From Octopus sinensis (taxonomy: Eukaryota), in assembly GCF_006345805.1 (NCBI RefSeq), contig NC_043008.1, positions 30,380,001 through 30,444,000 on the forward strand: 64,000 nt of DNA, in the 5' to 3' direction. Positions 6,366-47,841 of the stretch are shown piece after piece (position 1 is the first letter of the stretch; each line of letters opens with the position of its first letter). The notes beneath the pieces were generated by a model. That model did no database searches. It saw nothing but the letters and a program-made list of their open reading frames with translations, and was not told the origin of the DNA. Position numbers and translations under genes: made by a program.

Positions 6366-8609
6366 TATGTTTGACTTTTGTTTATATTTGTACAAGTTGG
6401 CTCCAAGTCTCACCCAGAGACCTCAAGAGACAACAGGGTTGGAAGTTCATGTTGTTGTTATGCCTAGTGTGCCATATATTTGGGGGGTGGGGATGTTGTA
6501 CTAATGAATGTCTAAAAAAAAAAGTTTTTTTTTTTTTTTTTTTAAACCGAAAATTATGGTTGTTTTAAACCTTGAGGTTACATAGAGAGTATTTTGCGTA
6601 GGATATGAGCAGTTCCCATGAGCACTATCTTTTGAACTTCTGCCATTTTTGGGTTTCCTGGTATCTGAGTTAGGTAGCCCCTTTTGCTATCATTCCCAGG
6701 GCACCTATGACAACAGGTATTGTTTTAGTTTTCAGCTTCCACATTTTGCTGATTTCTATTTCAAGATCTTTATAGTTGCTCAGTTTTTGGTAGGTCCTGA
6801 CAGATACGTTTATATCGATTGGGACAGTCATATCAATGAGGAGGCATGTTCTTTGTTTGAAGTCTTTCAATATGATGTCTGGCCTATTTGCATCTATCTT
6901 CCTGTCAGTTTGAATGGTGAAGTTCCAGAGGAGTGAGATGTGGTCATTTTCAAGCACTGGGGGTGGTTTGTGTTCCCACCAGTTTTTTTCATGGGGCAAA
7001 TCCAGGTTTTTACAGATTACCCAGTGAATATATTGTGCAGCTCTATCGTGCCTGTTGAGATACTCTGTAGGCGCTAGAAGACTGCACTTGGAGACCACAT
7101 GGTCAATGGTTTCATTTTGTTGCTTGCATACACGACACGTTGGACTGCTTCTGATCTTTAATATGTTGGCCTGGTAGTTTCTTGTTGGTAGGCATTGATC
7201 TTGAGCTGCTATGATAAACCCCTCTGTTTCAGATTTTAAGCCAGAGGCCATTAGCCATTGATGGGTCAGGGCTTTGTCGATATCTGCATTATTCGCTCTC
7301 TTTGGGTATTTGCCATAGAGAGGTTTTTCTTGCCATTTATTATTCAGAATATCTAAGGCCGCAGTTTTGGCACGGGTTTTCATGCGCCTAGCTTTTTCTT
7401 TGCCTGTTTCTTGTATGTCTATCTCTAATTCCGAAATTGGTTGTATTCGGAATTCACTTAGATATTCCTTTGCCTGTTTTGTGACTGAGGATGATGCTTT
7501 CTTGTTTTCATGTTTTGAGACAAGTTTTAACATCCAGTCCTCAGAGTTTTTCAGGTAGGTGTCTAGGCCAATTGTAACAATCTTCATTGTTATTGCCAGT
7601 TGCAAAAGACCACGGCCTCCCTCTTTTCTTGGCAGATAGAGTCGTTCTCTATCTGCCTTAGGGTGGTGCATTCTATGCATTATCAACAGTTTCCTTATTT
7701 TTCTGTCGAGCTGACATATTTCAGTAATTGACCAGTTAACAATATTGAAACTGTAAGTCACGACTGGTATAGCTAATGCATTGATTGCTTCGATCCTGTT
7801 TCTTGCATTCAGCTCTGTCTTGAGTATTGCTCTCACTCTTCGATAGCATTCTCTCCTGATCCTTTCCTTCATCTCTGAATGCCTTATCCCGTTCCCTTCA
7901 ATTACCCCTAGGTACTTGTAGCTCTCCGCTGGGTCTAGTTCTTTTATGACATTCTGTTGGTCAAGGTTAACGTTAGATGTTTCTGTCATTTTTCCTTTGA
8001 TAAAGGTAGCCTTTGCACATTTATCGAGGCCGAATTGCATTCTGATGTCGTCACTGAATTGTTTGACTATCGCTAGTAAGCCCTTGAGTTGTTGATCATT
8101 TTTTGCAAAAAGCTTTAAATCATCCATGTAAACGAGATGATTTATATTTTTATCAAAAATTTTATACCCGTACTGCGCGTCATTGAGCAGCTTTGAGAGA
8201 GGTATTAAGGATAAACAAAAGAGGAGTGGTGACAGTGAGTCACCCTGGAAAATGCCACACGAAATTTTTACATCACCAGCATTTAGGGATTCACTGTCAC
8301 TGTTCAGAGTTAGTGTGGTTCTCCATGATCTCATACTTACAGTCAAGAAGTTTCGCAGAGTTGGTGCTATCTTATACATTTCAAGGCATTTCCTAATCCA
8401 GCTATGTGGTAGGCTATCAAAAGCCTTTTTATAGTCTATCCAGGCTATTGATAAGTTTTTGTGTCGTTTGTGACAATCTTCTAAGATCATCTTATTGATG
8501 AGTAGTTGGTCTTTACAGCCGTAGGATCCACGTTTACATCCTTTCTGTTCATTAGGGAATATGCTGCTGTCTGTTAAAAAACTATAGGTATATTCCGTCA
8601 GGACAGATG

Positions 8610-8610
<1 letters not shown>
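6365..8610 (-). mobile_element. 5'-truncated, young R4/Dong-clade LINE inserted in (TAA)n
   Basis: RT motifs WIDYKKAFDS, GIFQGDSLSPLLF and YMDDLKLFA; CCHC finger CRVC..ETIDHVVSKC; restriction-like endonuclease RPDII..LIDMTVP..K; (TAA)n on both flanks. Confidence 0.95.
6578..8610 (-). pseudogene. R4/Dong RT-endonuclease ORF, 5'-truncated, with one frameshift near 6675
   Basis: Open from 8610 to 6670; the expected C-terminus YLTQIPGNPKMAEVQKIVLMGTAHILRKILSM* continues in another frame to the stop at 6578-6580. The N-terminal ~63 aa of the track ORF come from flanking DNA and (TAA)n. Confidence 0.85.
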
Positions 8611-8667
<57 letters not shown>

Positions 8668-8880
8668 GAGTAAGAGAAAAGTGCATGCCATCAAAATGAC
8701 ACTGGAGTTCAAATGTCCGAAGCCCAATGTACTCATCATAAGTACTGATCTGGTAAGTGTACACCAGGTACATGCATCACAACCATATATGATGAACATG
8801 TTGATTTCATATCAAGATAAACTGTGTATGACATTGCAGATGGAACCAAGTTAGAATTTCTTGAGCAGCCCATCTCATAA
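8611..8880 (-). mobile_element. (TAA)n tract plus possible 3' UTR fragment of another TAA-tailed retroelement
   Basis: (TAT)n at 8611-8667, then ~210 bp of GC-richer sequence ending flush against the microsatellite; identity is inferred only. Confidence 0.35.
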
Positions 8881-23714: not shown

Positions 23715-25385
23715 CATATATATATAAAGACAAAGAGGCAGGAGAGACATACTTGCTTATCTGAAGTGTATTCGTACACTCGTTGGATTGCGGGAGACAT
23801 TAATCAATACAAAAATATAAAAGAAAAGAATTAGCAGCAGTACTGCAGTATGATTTTCTATATATATTCGTCAATGTGTATGCGTGTGTCCGCGTGTGTC
23901 TGTGTGTTTGTGAGTGTAAACACAGATAGGTATATATATATATAAATATATATATATATGTATATATATATGTGTGTGTGTGTGTGTATGTATATAGACT
24001 CTTATTTGTGCATATATATATATGCACTGTTATTTATCTGACTGGTTTCATTTCAATGCTCGTCTCTACGTATCTCATACATATGTTTCTGCATATATTT
24101 CTATACTTGTATAGTCCTATAACTTGTATTTCTCATAAGAAATACGTAGTGTGATTACACCATATTCATATACATGTCTGTAGCTATATATTCAAATTAT
24201 ATATCTGTGTGCATCTGTGTGTGTGAGGGTTGTGTATGTGTGTGTGTCCATGTGTGCATGCGTGTGGTATAGTCTGTGTACATAGACTTAGTTGGCAGGT
24301 TTGCAAGATTTGGATATATCTGATGCGTTCTCTCTAACATAAGTAAATAATTCATGAAAAATATGTACGGCTGCGCATCAGTGGCTGTGTTGTTTTCACT
24401 CTATTTGTCCATCTAACTATCTCCGTCTGCTCTTTTATACACAGACACACTCACAGATACACGAGAATATAATACTTGACACACATATATACTTATATAG
24501 GAGCATATATGTATATATATATACGCACACACACACTCACACACATACATGCACATACACACAAACACACACATATATATATCCAAACATATGTGTATAC
24601 ATGCATATGTATATACACTCACACATAAAATTATATAGCAATGACCGCAGAGGCTTGACTAAAACGAGTAAAAGAATATATATATATATTTCGTTTATTT
24701 ATATGGTTTGCAAGATTCTTTATGCGAATTTGTGTGTTGAAGCATATTTTATTGTGTCTGGGGTGAGCCATTCTGTTTTTATAACTTATTAATTAACACA
24801 TTCACAGGTTCGATTTCTCCTCTGTTAATTATATATTTTTGACACACTCAGTATGATGAAAGAAGAAGAGATGGGTGCCGATTGTACTTGAAAGTAAGTA
24901 GTACGAAAGCAACAACGTTTTAAGAGTACATGTTGCCGTGGTGGGATAAAAAGGGAGAAATCAGAAATAGAGGCACAGTGATTGTAGATAACACAAATTA
25001 TGGTTGAAGAGACGAAATACTTTTGTATTTAACACAAGGGCGTAGATATTGAGGCATAACTGAGAGTGTAAGGGGATTCAGACTGAATATACTAAGTATG
25101 CACACAGAAACACAATTACACTTAGATATGTATGTGTGTGTATGTATTCTTGCATGTGTGTGTATATGCTTGTGTGTGTTAGCGCGTATGTGCGTTTGTG
25201 TGCATACAAATACAGATTAATATAGCTATGTATAAGTATATACATATGAATTTAAATCTGCATATACTTATGCACATAGGTTATTCGGGATAAAATTGAC
25301 AGAAAATGAAATCATATGAACCCATTCGAAAGTTAAATTTAAAATAAAAAATCGGCTTGACTATGGCTATATGTATTCATAAAAT

Positions 25386-25440
<55 letters not shown>

Positions 25441-25707
25441 ATATATATACAGATAGATAGATAGATAGATAAATTATAAAGGATGGGAATGATGGTGATG
25501 GTGGTGGGGGTGAGTGTAGTTTGATGTAGATTATGGTGGTGTCGGTTACGGCGGCGGCGGTGGAGGCGAATTGTAGGGGTAGCTGGTGGAAAATATAAGT
25601 ATAAAAATCACCGGAAAACGGGAAAAGTAAATTTGTAAAACCTATATACACACACACACACACACATACACACACACACACACACATACACACACACACA
25701 CACACAT

Positions 25708-25740
<33 letters not shown>

Positions 25741-25889
25741 CAAAGAGCAATAAAGATTCAAGTTAATTTAAAAAATTTACTTGAATATGGTACCTAACTT
25801 AGATGCACCAAAAAAAAACTATACTGATTTAACAATACAGTAATGTGGGGTGATTATAAGCGAGAAAGAAGCAACAAGAATGGATAGGT

Positions 25890-25980
25890 TTTTAGTACGA
25901 TCGTTTCATACAAGGACAGGTTTTATTAAAAGTTGCAAAGATTACAGCATATAAACGAGTCCCGTACTCATCAGCTAAAA
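25890..25980 (-). ncRNA. Type I hammerhead ribozyme (inverted copy)
   Basis: Exact reverse complement of 27090-27180. Confidence 0.8.
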
Positions 25981-27089
25981 TACATGTAAGTTCTCTAGAC
26001 ATCCTAGTGTTTGAGGCTATACTATGATAGACAATCCCCTAACACCTTGTAAATGATCTTATAAGATTTGACCTGTAGTCAGTCAATGTATGAATAATAA
26101 CGACAACTCCTTAAGACAATAAAATGAATAAATTAAATAAGTAAATTTTTAATGACTTTTTGATAAGATTATACTTAGATTTTCCTAATGTATTTTCTGG
26201 TGATTTTAGCATCTGACCCCTTAACCCCTGACTGTGTTATCTCTTTAGATTCTCTTTAAACTCATAGCTGATTTCAACAGCAATAAATTAACGGTTTACT
26301 GGTCAAAGAATAATATTCTCCTCTAGTCCTAGATGCCTGTTGATTAAAACCAGACTTACAGTCTACTAACTCTTCTGTATAGCTAGAACCCTCTTTTTTC
26401 TTTTTCTTTTTTTCCCTTCTTTCCCTATTTCTTTCTCTTCTCTTTTTTCTTTTTCTTCTTCTTATTCTCTGTTTCCTTTTCTCTTCTCTTTTAGTCCCCC
26501 TCTCCCCCCCCCTTTTTTGCTCCCTCCTCCATTATTTTCTCTCTTTTCTTCTATTCCCTTCTCTATTCTTGGCCGATCTAGTAAGCCCTTCAGCCTTTAA
26601 GAGTAAATAGCTACAGCCTCTTGTGAATAGCAGTAATGTGACTAATGTGGCAAACACCTAATCATATAACAAGGATTGATACCTACCTCATTGTGTTCAA
26701 CCATTGTAAAATTTATCGCCTGTAAATATGAAATTCATCTCCATTTCTCTGGAAATTTACATCTACACCATTGGAATCTGTGCATATATACAAAGGATTA
26801 ATTCACCCTCTCTGTAATGCTAATAAGCAGGAATTGAGACCCACCTCGTTGTAATTAACAATGGATAAATTTGTCTTCTGTGAGTATATAATCCCTCATC
26901 ATATCTATGGAAATTCATATGGATTAGGTCACCTTCTCTGTGATGCTATCAAAACTTTTTTAAAATTCTGTGATAAGACTGTACATCATCTTTAAAGAAC
27001 TTTAATGAACTTTAGAAATCTGTTTAATTATCTACATTACTTCATGAGTATAGCCTCAAACACTAGGATGTCTAGAGAACTTACATGTA

Positions 27090-27180
27090 TTTTAGCTGAT
27101 GAGTACGGGACTCGTTTATATGCTGTAATCTTTGCAACTTTTAATAAAACCTGTCCTTGTATGAAACGATCGTACTAAAA
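27090..27180 (+). ncRNA. Type I hammerhead ribozyme
   Basis: Stem I TTTTAG/CTAAAA; core CTGATGA (27096-27102); stem II GTACGGGAC/GTCCTTGTAT (one bulge, G.U closing pair); GAAA (27163); stem III within the palindrome ACGATCGT; predicted GUA cleavage after 27174. Confidence 0.8.
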
Positions 27181-27211
27181 ACCTATCCATTCTTGTTGCT
27201 TCTTTCTCGCG

Positions 27212-27240
<29 letters not shown>

Positions 27241-27242
<2 letters not shown>

Positions 27243-28503
27243 GTTCCGTAATGGAAGGGACTGCCTAACGCAGCTCCTGCACCACTTTGAGGACATTTTG
27301 AGAGTTTTGGGAGAGGGCTCCAACATTGGTGTCTCTGGAAAGTTACTGAAATGGATCAAGTGTTTCCTGACAGACAGATCTCAACATGTTGTAGTTGAAG
27401 GGGTAAAATCAAGCCCAGCCAAAGTCAGTAGTGGCGTTCCGCAAGGCACTGTGCTGGGCCCACTTCTTTTCATCATTTACATTAATGACATTAATGACAT
27501 CATCAAGCACAGCAACATAAAAATCTTTGCAGATGACTCCAAGCTACAGAAGGTCATAAATGAGGCGAGTGACCGGACATGCCTTCAGTCAGATCTACTG
27601 GCTGTTATCCAATGGGCAGAAAAAAAAAATATGCTGCTGAACGAGGATAAATTTGAGCTAATCCACTTTGGAAAAGAGGATGCCCTGAAACTCCCATACT
27701 CCCTTCCTTCAGGTGAAACTCTCGCGGCGTCCAACAACATCAGAGACTTGGGAGTAATTGTGGACAACAACATAAGCTGGGCCACTCATATAAACACCAA
27801 AGTTGACATGGCCCACAGAATGTGTTCCTGGATTCTCAGAACTTTCCAGTCGAGAGATATCCACACCATTATCCTTCTCTTCTCCACTTTTGCTCGACCC
27901 CACCTTGAATACTGTTGTCCACTGTGGTCTCCCCACACAATACAAGGTATCATAAAAGTTGAAGCACCTCAAAGGGCAATCACAAAAAAGATAGATGGCA
28001 TGACAGGCCTCGACTATTGGGGTCGACTAGAAAAGCTAAAACTCTATTCTCTCCAACGTCGTCGTGAGCGCTACATCATCTGCATGATGTGGAAAATATT
28101 CCATCAGCATTGCCCAAATGATGTTGGCATCACCTTTAAGGTACATCCAAGGCTTGGGCCCCGTGCCATCCGCCCAAAACAAAAATCGCACTCTCATCTC
28201 ATAAAAACAATACGGCACAATTATTTCACCTCAATTGGCCCCGCTCTCTTTAACATTACACCAAAACACATTAAAACAGAAACTGACCCTATAGGGTTCA
28301 AGAAGTCTTTGGACAGATTCCTTCAAGAAATCCCGGATAAACCCCCTACACCCGGATATGTCTCTGTAAACAATAACTCTCTACTTGAGTGGGCCATAGT
28401 GCCCAAATTCTGACTTGAAAGACTTCACCAGGTGGTGCTATTAAGTTAGACATGGCCTGGGCCAATAATGGCCGAAACCTATCAAAATATCAAAGTATCA
28501 AAG
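27241..28503 (+). mobile_element. 5'-truncated CR1-group LINE with internal deletion
   Basis: RT motifs GFRNGRDCLTQLL, SGVPQGTVLGPLLF, FADDSKL, RPHLEYC and LYSLQRRRERY; stop at 28413; short-repeat tail (TATCAAAG)n; (TA)n on both flanks. Confidence 0.93.
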
Positions 28504-28512
28504 TATATATAT

Positions 28513-28850
28513 ATAAATAGATGAGTGTATTTTTACCTTGTTAACAATTAACACGGAAAAATAAATAAATAGTTACCAGGGCAGCAAAAATCTCACAAGT
28601 AAAGATGTTGTAACTCCTTGTTTATAATGGTTGAAACTTCGTGTTTACGTTGAATATTTTGAATAATATGAATAAAAACGCAGGAGTTAACGCAGGTTTA
28701 AACAAGTATTTTTACTTTCTACATATGTTTCGAAAATTCCACTGATACTATTCAAAAGAATAAATGGTATAAATAGTATCAGTGGAATTTTCGAAACGTG
28801 TAGAAAGTAAAAATACTTGTTTAAACCTGCGTTAACTCCATTTTTTATTC

Positions 28851-28853
<3 letters not shown>
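28513..28853. mobile_element. Foldback element (probable truncated PLE end) with half-hammerhead
   Basis: Arms 28683-28752 and 28772-28839, extending imperfectly to 28667/28853; GAAAC-ATAT-GTA on the minus arm (28720-28731) and GAAAC-GT-GTA on the plus arm (28793-28802); (TA)n flanks. Confidence 0.75.
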
Positions 28854-28887
<34 letters not shown>

Positions 28888-29734
28888 ATACAGGCGCAAG
28901 AGTGACTGTAACAACAGTAACAATCGTCCCTTCCAGGACAGCCACATTATTTTGACAAATATTCTTTACTTTAAAGAACAGAGAGATTTAGAAATAATGT
29001 TTTTATTCATTAGATCAGTGATGTATATCAATTTGAAAACTATATATATTCGAACGGGAATTCAGCACAGCACTAGCCAACAACTCTGTGTTGATAAAGT
29101 GCAATAACCTAGAAACTGGTCCACAGATGTTGCTTTTTACTGGATAGGGGGACTTAACTCCTTGTTCGAAAGATCAGATATTGTATCGTATAGCCAGCTG
29201 GAAACGATGCTTCCTGGGGCTAAGCAAAAGTAACATTCGTCCCCTCCGGACAACTACATAATGTAGGCAAATAGTCTTTACTTTATATATATATGGACAG
29301 AAGAACCGAGCTATTTGTGGCCCTAGAAGAAATTAAACGAAAGTACTAAAATAGCTGCGAAATTACCAAGAGACGATAAATTAAGTGAAGTTATTCATGA
29401 TGAGGATATAGAGAGTTAGAGTATAGACTAGAATTTAGACTCATGTGAGCAGTTGTAGACACACACATACACACACACTCACACACACAAACACACACAC
29501 ACAAGCACATTCTCACCTACACATAGATAAATAGACACACATGCACGCATACACACACGTAGACAGACACACACACAGCTTATACAACAATAAACACTTA
29601 TACACAGCACCACTCACGTAAAATATACGATATGACTATGTGTATATATCTATATATATTCCATATGTATATGCGTGTGTTTTTGTGTGTGCGAGTGCAG
29701 GTGCATGTGTGTGTATAGATGGATATATATATAT

Positions 29735-47356: not shown

Positions 47357-47411
47357 ATTAACCTGAGTAATAATAACAACTTCAAAAGTACCTTAGGAAT
47401 GAGAACCCAAC

Positions 47412-47455
47412 ACACCTGAAGAAGGCTGGAGGGTATATCAGCCGAAACGTTGTGT
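47412..47455 (+). ncRNA. Minimal type I hammerhead ribozyme of the PLE pseudo-LTR
   Basis: ACAC-CTGAAGA-A-GGCTG(loop)CAGCC-GAAAC-GTT-GTGT; palindromic AACGTT replaces stem III. Confidence 0.75.
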
Positions 47456-47841
47456 TAACAACAAACAAGATGGGAACAAATATCCGTCAAATGTAAATAA
47501 TGACACATTGTATAATATATTCCAAAATAGAGAAAATTGTCACTCTGGAACACACCTGATCATATGTCTGCTCGGTTAGTGTTGATCCCAGATCAAAGAA
47601 TAACAACTGGATCATTTTTCAAGTCGAAAGAAGTTTTACATATTTCTTTAGCTTCTCAAAATATCACTAGCAACATTGAGATCAGCGTTAGAAGCCAAAA
47701 TTTAAACGCATGCTTTAATGTATGTCTTTTCGTTATAATAAAATTTCAACAATGTTAATCCTACTTTCCAGTTCCTACTAAATTTGAACATTGAAAACTG
47801 AAATTCAAACGTTCATTTATCTTTATTACTAAGATTTTTAA

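Follow-up and report, generated by a model that had tools for sequence, protein, structure and literature searches.

What kind of element leaves a perfect inverted repeat around roughly 1 kb of noncoding DNA, with a hammerhead ribozyme motif in each arm? The locus lies in a stretch of 64,000 nucleotides of the Octopus sinensis genome (assembly GCF_006345805.1, contig NC_043008.1, positions 30,380,001 to 30,444,000, forward strand), referred to here as the window; positions are those of the window unless preceded by the number of another genomic locus (L003, L064, and so on). A sequence-only reading had proposed a very recent Penelope-like element (PLE) or retrozyme-like insertion. We conclude with considerable confidence that the insertion is the truncated, head-to-head 3' end of a young Hydra-clade PLE in a (TA)n microsatellite, likely produced by two RT events, and that for the conserved type I hammerhead motif in each arm cleavage is predicted chiefly in the dimer or with the assistance of a protein.

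Architecture of the insertion

The repeat is as perfect as originally described: the arms are identical as inverted repeats over 164 of 164 bp, with the first mismatches at 25859/27211 and 26024/27046 (Table 1), and the interval of about 1 kb between them holds no frame of 120 aa or more in an ORF scan, the window copy being without an ORF. The extent first given, 25860..27210, holds for the repeat itself; the element is larger and runs outward from the left arm for a further 119 nt, to 25741. The arms are therefore not transposon termini, as this tail extends past one of them only. The tail sequence also follows the pseudo-LTR (pLTR) at L031 and L083, where it continues to an ATG located 208 nt past the ribozyme cut site.

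In blastn comparisons with an ORF-bearing copy, L064, the insertion aligned in two pieces, 26023-27215 on the plus strand (94%) and 26027-25720 on the minus strand (99%). The L064 counterpart of the spacer sits downstream of the GIY-YIG stop codon. As part of the explanation that we favor with considerable confidence, the perfect repeat is merely the overlap between two truncated cDNAs and the spacer, which includes a long pyrimidine tract near 26390-26570, is 3' UTR. The inverted repeat itself is ordinary, being textbook architecture for PLEs.

Table 1. Coordinates of the insertion and its features in the window
Feature	Position	Strand	Basis or remark
(TA)n target microsatellite, left flank	25720..25740		Sequence
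Whole insertion	25741..27210		Head-to-head pair of 5'-truncated 3'-end copies of a Hydra-clade PLE
Tail, 119 nt, end type A (start of element 5' UTR)	25741..25859	-	Left arm only
Left arm (final 164 nt of pLTR/3' UTR)	25860..26023	-	Exact reverse complement of 27047-27210
Type I hammerhead motif, left copy	25890..25980	-	Descriptor scan; mirror of 27090-27180; predicted cut after 25896
Inversion junction, overlap of about 5 nt (microhomology, one gap)	26023..26027		blastn overlap of arms = 5
Noncoding 3' UTR/pLTR body (spacer), about 1 kb	26024..27046	+	94% identity to L064:7217-8387
Right arm (final 164 nt of pLTR)	27047..27210	+	Tail-less end type B, 36 nt past cut site
Type I hammerhead motif, right copy	27090..27180	+	Conserved core and covarying stems, five lineages; predicted cut after 27174 (GUA)
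Domain II, 60 nt, predicted long irregular hairpin	27103..27162	+	Constrained fold; pair counts
AATAAA, 26 nt before cut site, partly paired in domain II	27143..27148	+	Present in 126/128 distinct copies and in each of the five lineages
Palindromic stem III/loop III, 8 nt, predicted dimerization helix	27166..27173	+	Duplex -10 kcal/mol; palindrome retained
U/GU-rich tract past cut site	27190..27207	+	Sequence; core retained in distant lineage F5
(TA)n target microsatellite, right flank	27212..27240		Sequence

Perfect inverted arms flanking noncoding DNA would also fit a nonautonomous retrozyme or a DNA transposon (a MITE or a fold-back element) whose terminal inverted repeats measure 164 bp, and tandem retrozyme-like families of 490 and 600 nt with similar hammerheads exist in the same genome. 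However, the arms are not termini, copies differ in arm length and spacing (0.2 to 7.8 kb), and the interior aligns colinearly with 3' UTR sequence belonging to an RT and GIY-YIG frame. The colinearity and the varying arms refute this interpretation, which we regard as extremely improbable.

A Hydra-clade Penelope-like element

The structure of the complete element can be read at two loci. On the minus strand of L031, (TA)n is followed by two pLTRs, the first inverted and the second direct but partial; next come the 5' UTR, an RT and GIY-YIG frame that is frameshifted, and a 3' UTR of 1.5 kb with the ribozyme at its end, and the tail and a second (TA)n complete the order. The direct pLTRs lie 4552 nt apart, which gives the unit length, and together with the inverted copy they form the pseudo-LTR arrangement of an endonuclease-bearing (EN+) PLE. 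At L064:3998-6838 there is a near-complete frame of 947 codons, the first of which derive from the inversion junction of that copy, with RT (motif LYRDD) followed by the endonuclease (NVIY...YIG), as in the single ORF of EN+ PLEs. The linked RT/GIY-YIG frame is present at both loci, and the inverted pLTR and the type I hammerheads with palindromic stem III that had been named as PLE features are borne out.

Diagnostic features of the Hydra clade include RWK, DKT, CxCX5C, and CxxC plus CxH around a conserved E and N, with no CCHH (PMC8557442). The L064 protein has RWK at 37, DKT at 124, CxCX5C at 808, CxxC at 905, and CxH at 935 and lacks DKG, DKA, and CCHH; it has a single Cys between IY and YIG and, compared by eye, matches the rows of Fig. 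S7 of PMC8557442. It has 1,102 homologues at E values up to 1e-20, the closest named ones being molluscan and only about 40% identical, and Pfam searches with the 944-aa protein and with ORF pieces returned no RT or GIY-YIG domain and nothing meaningful. Assigned by motifs and by eye against the published alignment, the family is an autonomous, EN+ PLE of the Hydra clade. The earlier proposal thereby narrows on its PLE side to a specific autonomous family, and its retrozyme side falls away. By eye, both protein and ribozyme also appear distinct from those of Hydra-1_Obim. A Naiad or Chlamys assignment was rejected, as the endonuclease is C-terminal rather than N-terminal and the motif is DKT rather than DKA, that group also being characterized by the lack of a canonical hammerhead; the 3' end of Naiad_Ovul, marked HHR_half_core in the published material, looks by eye unlike a type I hammerhead with a long domain II.

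The element shares with the Hydra clade as described by Craig et al. (2021, PMC8557442) the C-terminal GIY-YIG, the motif set without CCHH, the (TA)n target, and a type I hammerhead near the 3' end. Copy ends nearly all abut (TA)n, as they do in that clade; the tail end of L181 is an exception. Among the listed elements, Penelope-13_HM has a similar 5'-truncated inverted copy, with a hammerhead on each strand and a G.U pair closing stem II. In contrast, the published Hydra elements are generally <3 kb with small-loop hammerheads, a tendency and not a diagnostic trait, whereas the octopus element reaches 4.55 kb with its 1.5-kb 3' UTR and has a 60-nt domain II. Its extra length stems from Asn-rich inserts in the protein (up to 35% N), of a kind known from rotifer PLEs (PMC3846280). 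Non-LTR retrozymes, which have been proposed to derive from PLE pLTRs, likewise carry type I hammerheads in animal repeats, but as noncoding tandem units of 150 to 1000 nt with one hammerhead each (PMC7229834; bioRxiv 10.64898/2026.07.22.740005), unlike the 4.55-kb coding unit and inverted fragment in octopus.

As a separate observation, L147:4600-5040 and its inverted copy belong to a third Hydra-type family (36 to 43% identity) with a hammerhead-like motif in which CCGAAGA replaces CUGANGA; this family also has one longer and one shorter end.

Copy number and age

Copies of the element are numerous in the host genome, which measures 2.72 Gb and is rich in microsatellites. The 164-mer had 1,018 genomic candidates, and all of those scored (40/40) matched at 100%; a 30-mer from the ribozyme had 714 exact genomic matches, compared with 0 for the control. 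At L064, the two inverted arms extend over 3023 bp and are 99.97% identical. Judged from these three comparisons of its copies, the family is very young.

Two further observations concern its distribution and neighbors. The 3' end of the element (L064:7900-8500) has a high word share in runs with four organism codes (A to D), which may stand for several related species or for labels. Near-identical clusters in which three to four different hammerhead families are nested within about 2 kb occur at L148:5100-7400, L149, and L150 and recur near the start of contig C23.

Two fixed ends and a proposed route of insertion

Copies end at two fixed places, approximately 36 nt or 150 to 160 nt past the ribozyme cut site. 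All 38 inverted insertions in a set with both ribozymes in view, drawn from loci returned by the searches rather than from a random sample, have one end bearing a tail of about 117 to 119 nt and one tail-less end; 29 were classed by script, and 9, in which the script had paired an unresolved end with a tail-less one, were resolved by eye as tail-bearing, with two internal tandem junctions of L031 and the locus L024 (whose second arm failed the anchor) left out. Among the first 100 of the 714 exact ribozyme matches listed, 35 of 63 loci had an outward-pointing inverted pair and none had an inward-pointing pair. A one-sided tail is already known qualitatively in PLEs (PMC8557442, legend of Fig. 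2; PMC3846280), in which tails of 30 to 40 nt have been described, compared with 119 nt here.

The closest biochemical parallel is the Poseidon element of the green anole (Frangieh et al. 2024, PMC11167929), the protein of which nicks and extends both target strands at an AT-rich target, starting at two internal RNA sites downstream of the hammerhead that delimit the tail. Poseidon belongs to a different clade, and its start sites lie inside the ORF, whereas those of the octopus element both lie in the 5' UTR, about 117 to 119 nt apart. The end geometry and the analogy with the Poseidon-clade protein lead us to infer that each target strand primed its own RT event and that microhomology joined the products. 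The GIY-YIG endonuclease of the element would nick both (TA)n strands; one 3' end would prime at the downstream RNA site, about 155 nt past the cut site, and yield the 119-nt tail, while the other would prime at the upstream site, 36 nt past the cut site, and yield the tail-less end. Both cDNAs would stop early, with microhomology of a few bases joining them. For the ribozyme, the proposed role is to reduce full-length tandem transcripts to unit length by cleavage. Insertions are copied from RNA that extends past the cut site, and their templates must have been uncleaved or re-ligated.

The inversion might instead arise within one RT event, by fold-back, self-priming, or template switching, rather than from two independent primers. 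Self-priming has been proposed for inverted PLE junctions with palindromes (PMC3846280), and five young copies (L003, L006, L010, L013, and L029) have near-equal arms with junction overlaps of 9 to 18 nt. Yet the arms end at different fixed sites in 38/38 insertions, and either arm may be the longer one (132 versus 1152 nt in the window copy and 2338 versus 373 nt in L032), a longer tail-less arm not being expected from a simple fold-back copy. A single event thus seems somewhat unlikely, and two priming events remain our preferred account. With copies that number in the hundreds, are near-identical, and end sharply at two fixed sites, this young family offers a clean natural test of PLE integration, which is unsettled.

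The hammerhead motif and its conservation

In each arm, a descriptor scan recovered the complete hammerhead that had been recognized by inspection, with a 6-bp stem I and a self-complementary stem III. On the plus strand, the right copy comprises stem I (27090-27095), CUGAUGA (27096-27102), domain II, GAAA (27163-27166), CGAUCG (27167-27172), UA (27173-27174), and the second strand of stem I (27175-27180). The strict descriptor (stem I of at least 6 bp, stem II of at least 4 bp, and a palindromic stem III) had 0 matches in 30 Markov-resampled 64-kb windows, and a loose descriptor had 0.03 per window. A search with the Rfam hammerhead models, the check that had been suggested for this motif, did not recover it: among 41 matches in 24000-29000 at E values up to 10 there was no hammerhead, only sub-cut-off, microsatellite-driven miRNA matches.

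The 128 distinct copies analyzed comprise four subfamilies, A (63), B (14), C (7), and D (24), and a distant lineage, F5 (20). The core is unchanged in the five lineages except at the free position N7, and the GUA site is unchanged. The motif has the CUGANGA...GAAA...UH core, the three helices, and the open helix I of a type I hammerhead. Over subfamilies A to D, 13/13 core positions and 6/6 positions of AATAAA are invariant, compared with 35/54 in domain II outside AATAAA and 54/114 (47%) in the upstream flank. The predicted helices also covary: in 15 hand-picked real copies, 91.1% of cells are paired and 8 of 30 pairs show double changes, with a covariation score of 0.206, versus 0.117 for shuffled and at most 0.083 for slid alignments, a score that rests on five related lineages and hand-chosen rows, is inflated by relatedness, and is set against a shuffle count that is not a probability. 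Compensatory changes occur in helices I, II, and III. In stem I, U-A/A-U is replaced by C-G/G-C, and in subfamilies B to D and F5 stem III has undergone a double change yet is still palindromic. The core conservation and stem covariation anticipated for a genuine ribozyme are thus found among the copies.

The G.U pair closing stem II, which had been suspected of lowering activity, is indeed present, in subfamilies A to C, with G-C in its place in subfamily D. It is, however, ordinary for the clade: Penelope-13_HM and Penelope-17_HM have G.U at this position and many Hydra rows have U.U (PMC8557442, file S2), a mismatch that is tolerated (PMC3088659).

The isolated 101-nt RNA folds no better than shuffled sequences (z = -1.18), so the evidence for the ribozyme is comparative and not thermodynamic. 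In predictions, the monomeric active fold lies 5 to 6.5 kcal/mol above the minimum-energy fold, and the palindrome duplex has -10 kcal/mol. A high-energy monomer fold combined with a stable palindrome duplex fits the dimer or assisted-cleavage model for PLE hammerheads (PMC4209133, PMC6765202). The minimal PLE hammerheads described by Cervera and de la Pena (2014, PMC4209133) are likewise of type I, located in the pLTR, and equipped with a short palindromic stem III, and they occur in opposite-strand pairs about 100 to 700 bp apart, have low activity, and are explained by a dimer model.

The motif might alternatively retain the hammerhead fold without cleaving any longer and serve as a structural or protein-binding element beside the RT start sites. 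In keeping with this, the active fold is not the predicted minimum, the templates of insertion must have been uncleaved or re-ligated, and in the anole PLE hammerhead mutants left in vitro insertion unchanged and reads ending at the cut site were absent (PMC11167929). The same anole study found protein-assisted cleavage, however, and in the octopus family the core (except N7) and GUA are unchanged in five lineages, compared with 47% invariance of the upstream flank over four, with the stem III palindrome retained through a double change. We therefore consider loss of cleavage very unlikely and favor a ribozyme predicted to act mainly as a dimer or with protein assistance.

Elsewhere in the window, at 47410-47456 (plus strand), a second motif, a small one, resembles a hammerhead; its domain II has 21 nt and its stem III is minimal, and a similar one is present in L080.

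An oversized domain II in several families

The enlargement of domain II relative to minimal PLE hammerheads was correctly noted from the sequence: it measures 60 nt, whereas the 26 Hydra rows in file S2 of PMC8557442 have loops of 3 to 10 nt and domains no longer than about 26 nt. Whereas helix II of the minimal forms has 6 to 8 bp and a small loop (PMC4209133), the octopus domain is a predicted three-helix hairpin with AAUAAA, consisting of a basal stem, a UUUAU/AUAAA helix, and an apical 7-bp stem, with pairing of 91%, 83%, and 90%, respectively. Long domains II have precedent in the PLE-X1 hammerheads of spike moss, flagged in file S2 of PMC8557442 as deviating from the canonical structure; in PLE-X1_sMoe, loop 2 has 35 nt and the domain about 54 nt overall. 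Unlike the octopus element, PLE-X1 is a plant element, an endonuclease-less, rDNA-targeting relative of Chlamys, and its listed loop contains no AATAAA.

Domain II measures 58 to 60 nt in the window family and 59 nt in F5. At least six other families in the same genome have domains II of 53 to 76 nt, those in the fetched loci measuring 66, 67 to 68, 61 to 76, 53 to 54, and 55 nt, with single cases of 61 and 72 nt; families with 12 to 25 nt also occur. In L155, a second, divergent Hydra-type frame is followed after about 600 nt by the 55-nt type. The 68-nt and 76-nt types occur in retrozyme-like tandems of 490 and 600 nt, respectively, and no link to an ORF was found for long-domain-II families 2, 3, and 4 in the fetched loci. 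Such a long domain II is likely to be an extension of the hairpin that is tolerated and is common in the octopus genome, and what is new is its oversized form and its spread across several families. In the literature listings we found no paper on long-domain-II forms; the supplements of the retrozyme preprint might list long-loop hammerheads.

Hammerheads with domains II of 53 to 76 nt recur in thousands of candidate copies in this genome. Because Rfam misses the window copy and the core descriptor of PMC8557442 permitted a spacer of only 7 to 17 nt, ribozyme counts for invertebrate genomes may be underestimates.

The tandems of about 490 nt (L153, L154) and about 600 nt (L145, L146) with 68-nt and 76-nt domains II form young retrozyme-like families that occur as direct and inverted arrays beside (TA)n, with more than 1,200 candidates each.

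AATAAA within domain II

The AATAAA hexamer does lie inside domain II, as had been pointed out, and it is unchanged in the five lineages, compared with 21 of the 55 other domain II columns (chance level approximately 0.003 to 0.009, a post hoc figure). The 800 nt preceding the cut contain no other AATAAA or ATTAAA, and the pairing partner of the hexamer varies, pair 30-61 holding in 6 of 15 rows. The hexamer was absent from domain II of the other long families, in 0/53, 0/45, 0/21, 0/4, and 0/3 distinct sequences, and the enlargement therefore does not serve polyadenylation.

The AAUAAA could nonetheless be the working poly(A) signal of the element. Together with the U/GU tract, it would place a cleavage/polyadenylation site nearly on top of the ribozyme cut site, and folding of domain II would hide the signal, switching the RNA from a polyadenylated mRNA to a read-through RT template. 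The spacing of hexamer, cut, and U/GU tract is canonical for poly(A) signals. The near-universal conservation of the hexamer while its partner varies and its uniqueness near the cut agree with such a role, and two other families carry AATAAA a few bases past the cut. Against it stand the other long-domain-II families examined, in which the hexamer is missing from the domain, and six further AATAAA or ATTAAA hexamers upstream in the AT-rich 3' UTR, the chance of one falling in the domain being about 5%; partial pairing means that structure could account for the conservation, and all insertions were copied from RNA reaching past the site. On balance we hold a working signal to be possible but the less probable case. 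Coupling of self-cleavage to 3'-end formation, as the sequence-only reading had suggested, is thus not established, since the hexamer is conserved within the family but absent from the other long domains II and every copy was templated from RNA reaching 36 or about 155 nt past the cut site. In contigs from four runs, none of the loose ends listed (172 more fell outside the list) was a poly(A) end or a molecule end at the cut site, which carries no weight, as contigs do not show RNA ends. If the AAUAAA works, this would be a ribozyme whose fold gates polyadenylation; our literature search did not find such gating described for PLEs, the review passage that it met concerning Clec2.

Fold-back RNA and possible editing

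The two motifs of the window copy point away from each other, and a read-through RNA would hold one sense ribozyme only. Such an RNA would zip that ribozyme into 164 bp of dsRNA, in which it would likely be inactive and likely an ADAR substrate. A>G and T>C changes together outnumbered G>A and C>T changes by 52:21 and 33:17 in two contig sets of putative RNA, compared with 25:27 in a DNA-like run (Fisher p = 0.0098 and 0.076), the RNA labels being guesses and all runs being contigs with different organism codes, unmatched to DNA of the same source. At positions equivalent to 27094, 27128, 27178, and 27179, three of them in stem I, A>G was found in both putative RNA sets and was absent or nearly so in the DNA-like run, and A is present in 62/62 fetched genomic copies. 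The excess is consistent with A-to-I editing of fold-back RNA and is offered as a lead only. A joint reading would combine at least seven hammerhead families with domains II of 53 to 76 nt (Hydra clade and retrozyme-like) that escape Rfam and short-loop descriptors, a fold switch in which the extension hides the conserved AAUAAA and moves the RNA between polyadenylated mRNA and a read-through template for two-site priming, and host A-to-I editing of fold-back copies that destabilizes stem I; taken as a whole, we judge it unlikely.

In runs X1 and X5, six T>C changes fall within 33 nt on one contig in the L064 regions 7739-7897 and 8266-8351; this cluster and the A>G changes in stem I of L064 are absent from the DNA-like run, which may indicate hyper-editing. 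Run X1 also has high depth over the 3' half of the ribozyme, a contig depth and not an expression level.

Other repeats in the window

Directly after the right (TA)n lies a separate element, a 5'-truncated fragment of a LINE-type RT at 27241-28413 on the plus strand (Pfam RVT_1, E value of 2.5e-11). Another non-LTR retrotransposon is represented on the minus strand at 6670-8811 by an open frame of 713 codons with RVT_1 (E value of 1.9e-22) and a weak zf-RVT match. A short interspersed repeat recurs six to seven times between 20140 and 21920, in diverged copies that lie 170 to 690 nt apart and share a conserved part of about 50 to 80 nt. A near-perfect 100-nt hairpin at 28711-28811, similar to mir-5014 in Rfam but far under the cut-off, is probably a small fold-back repeat.
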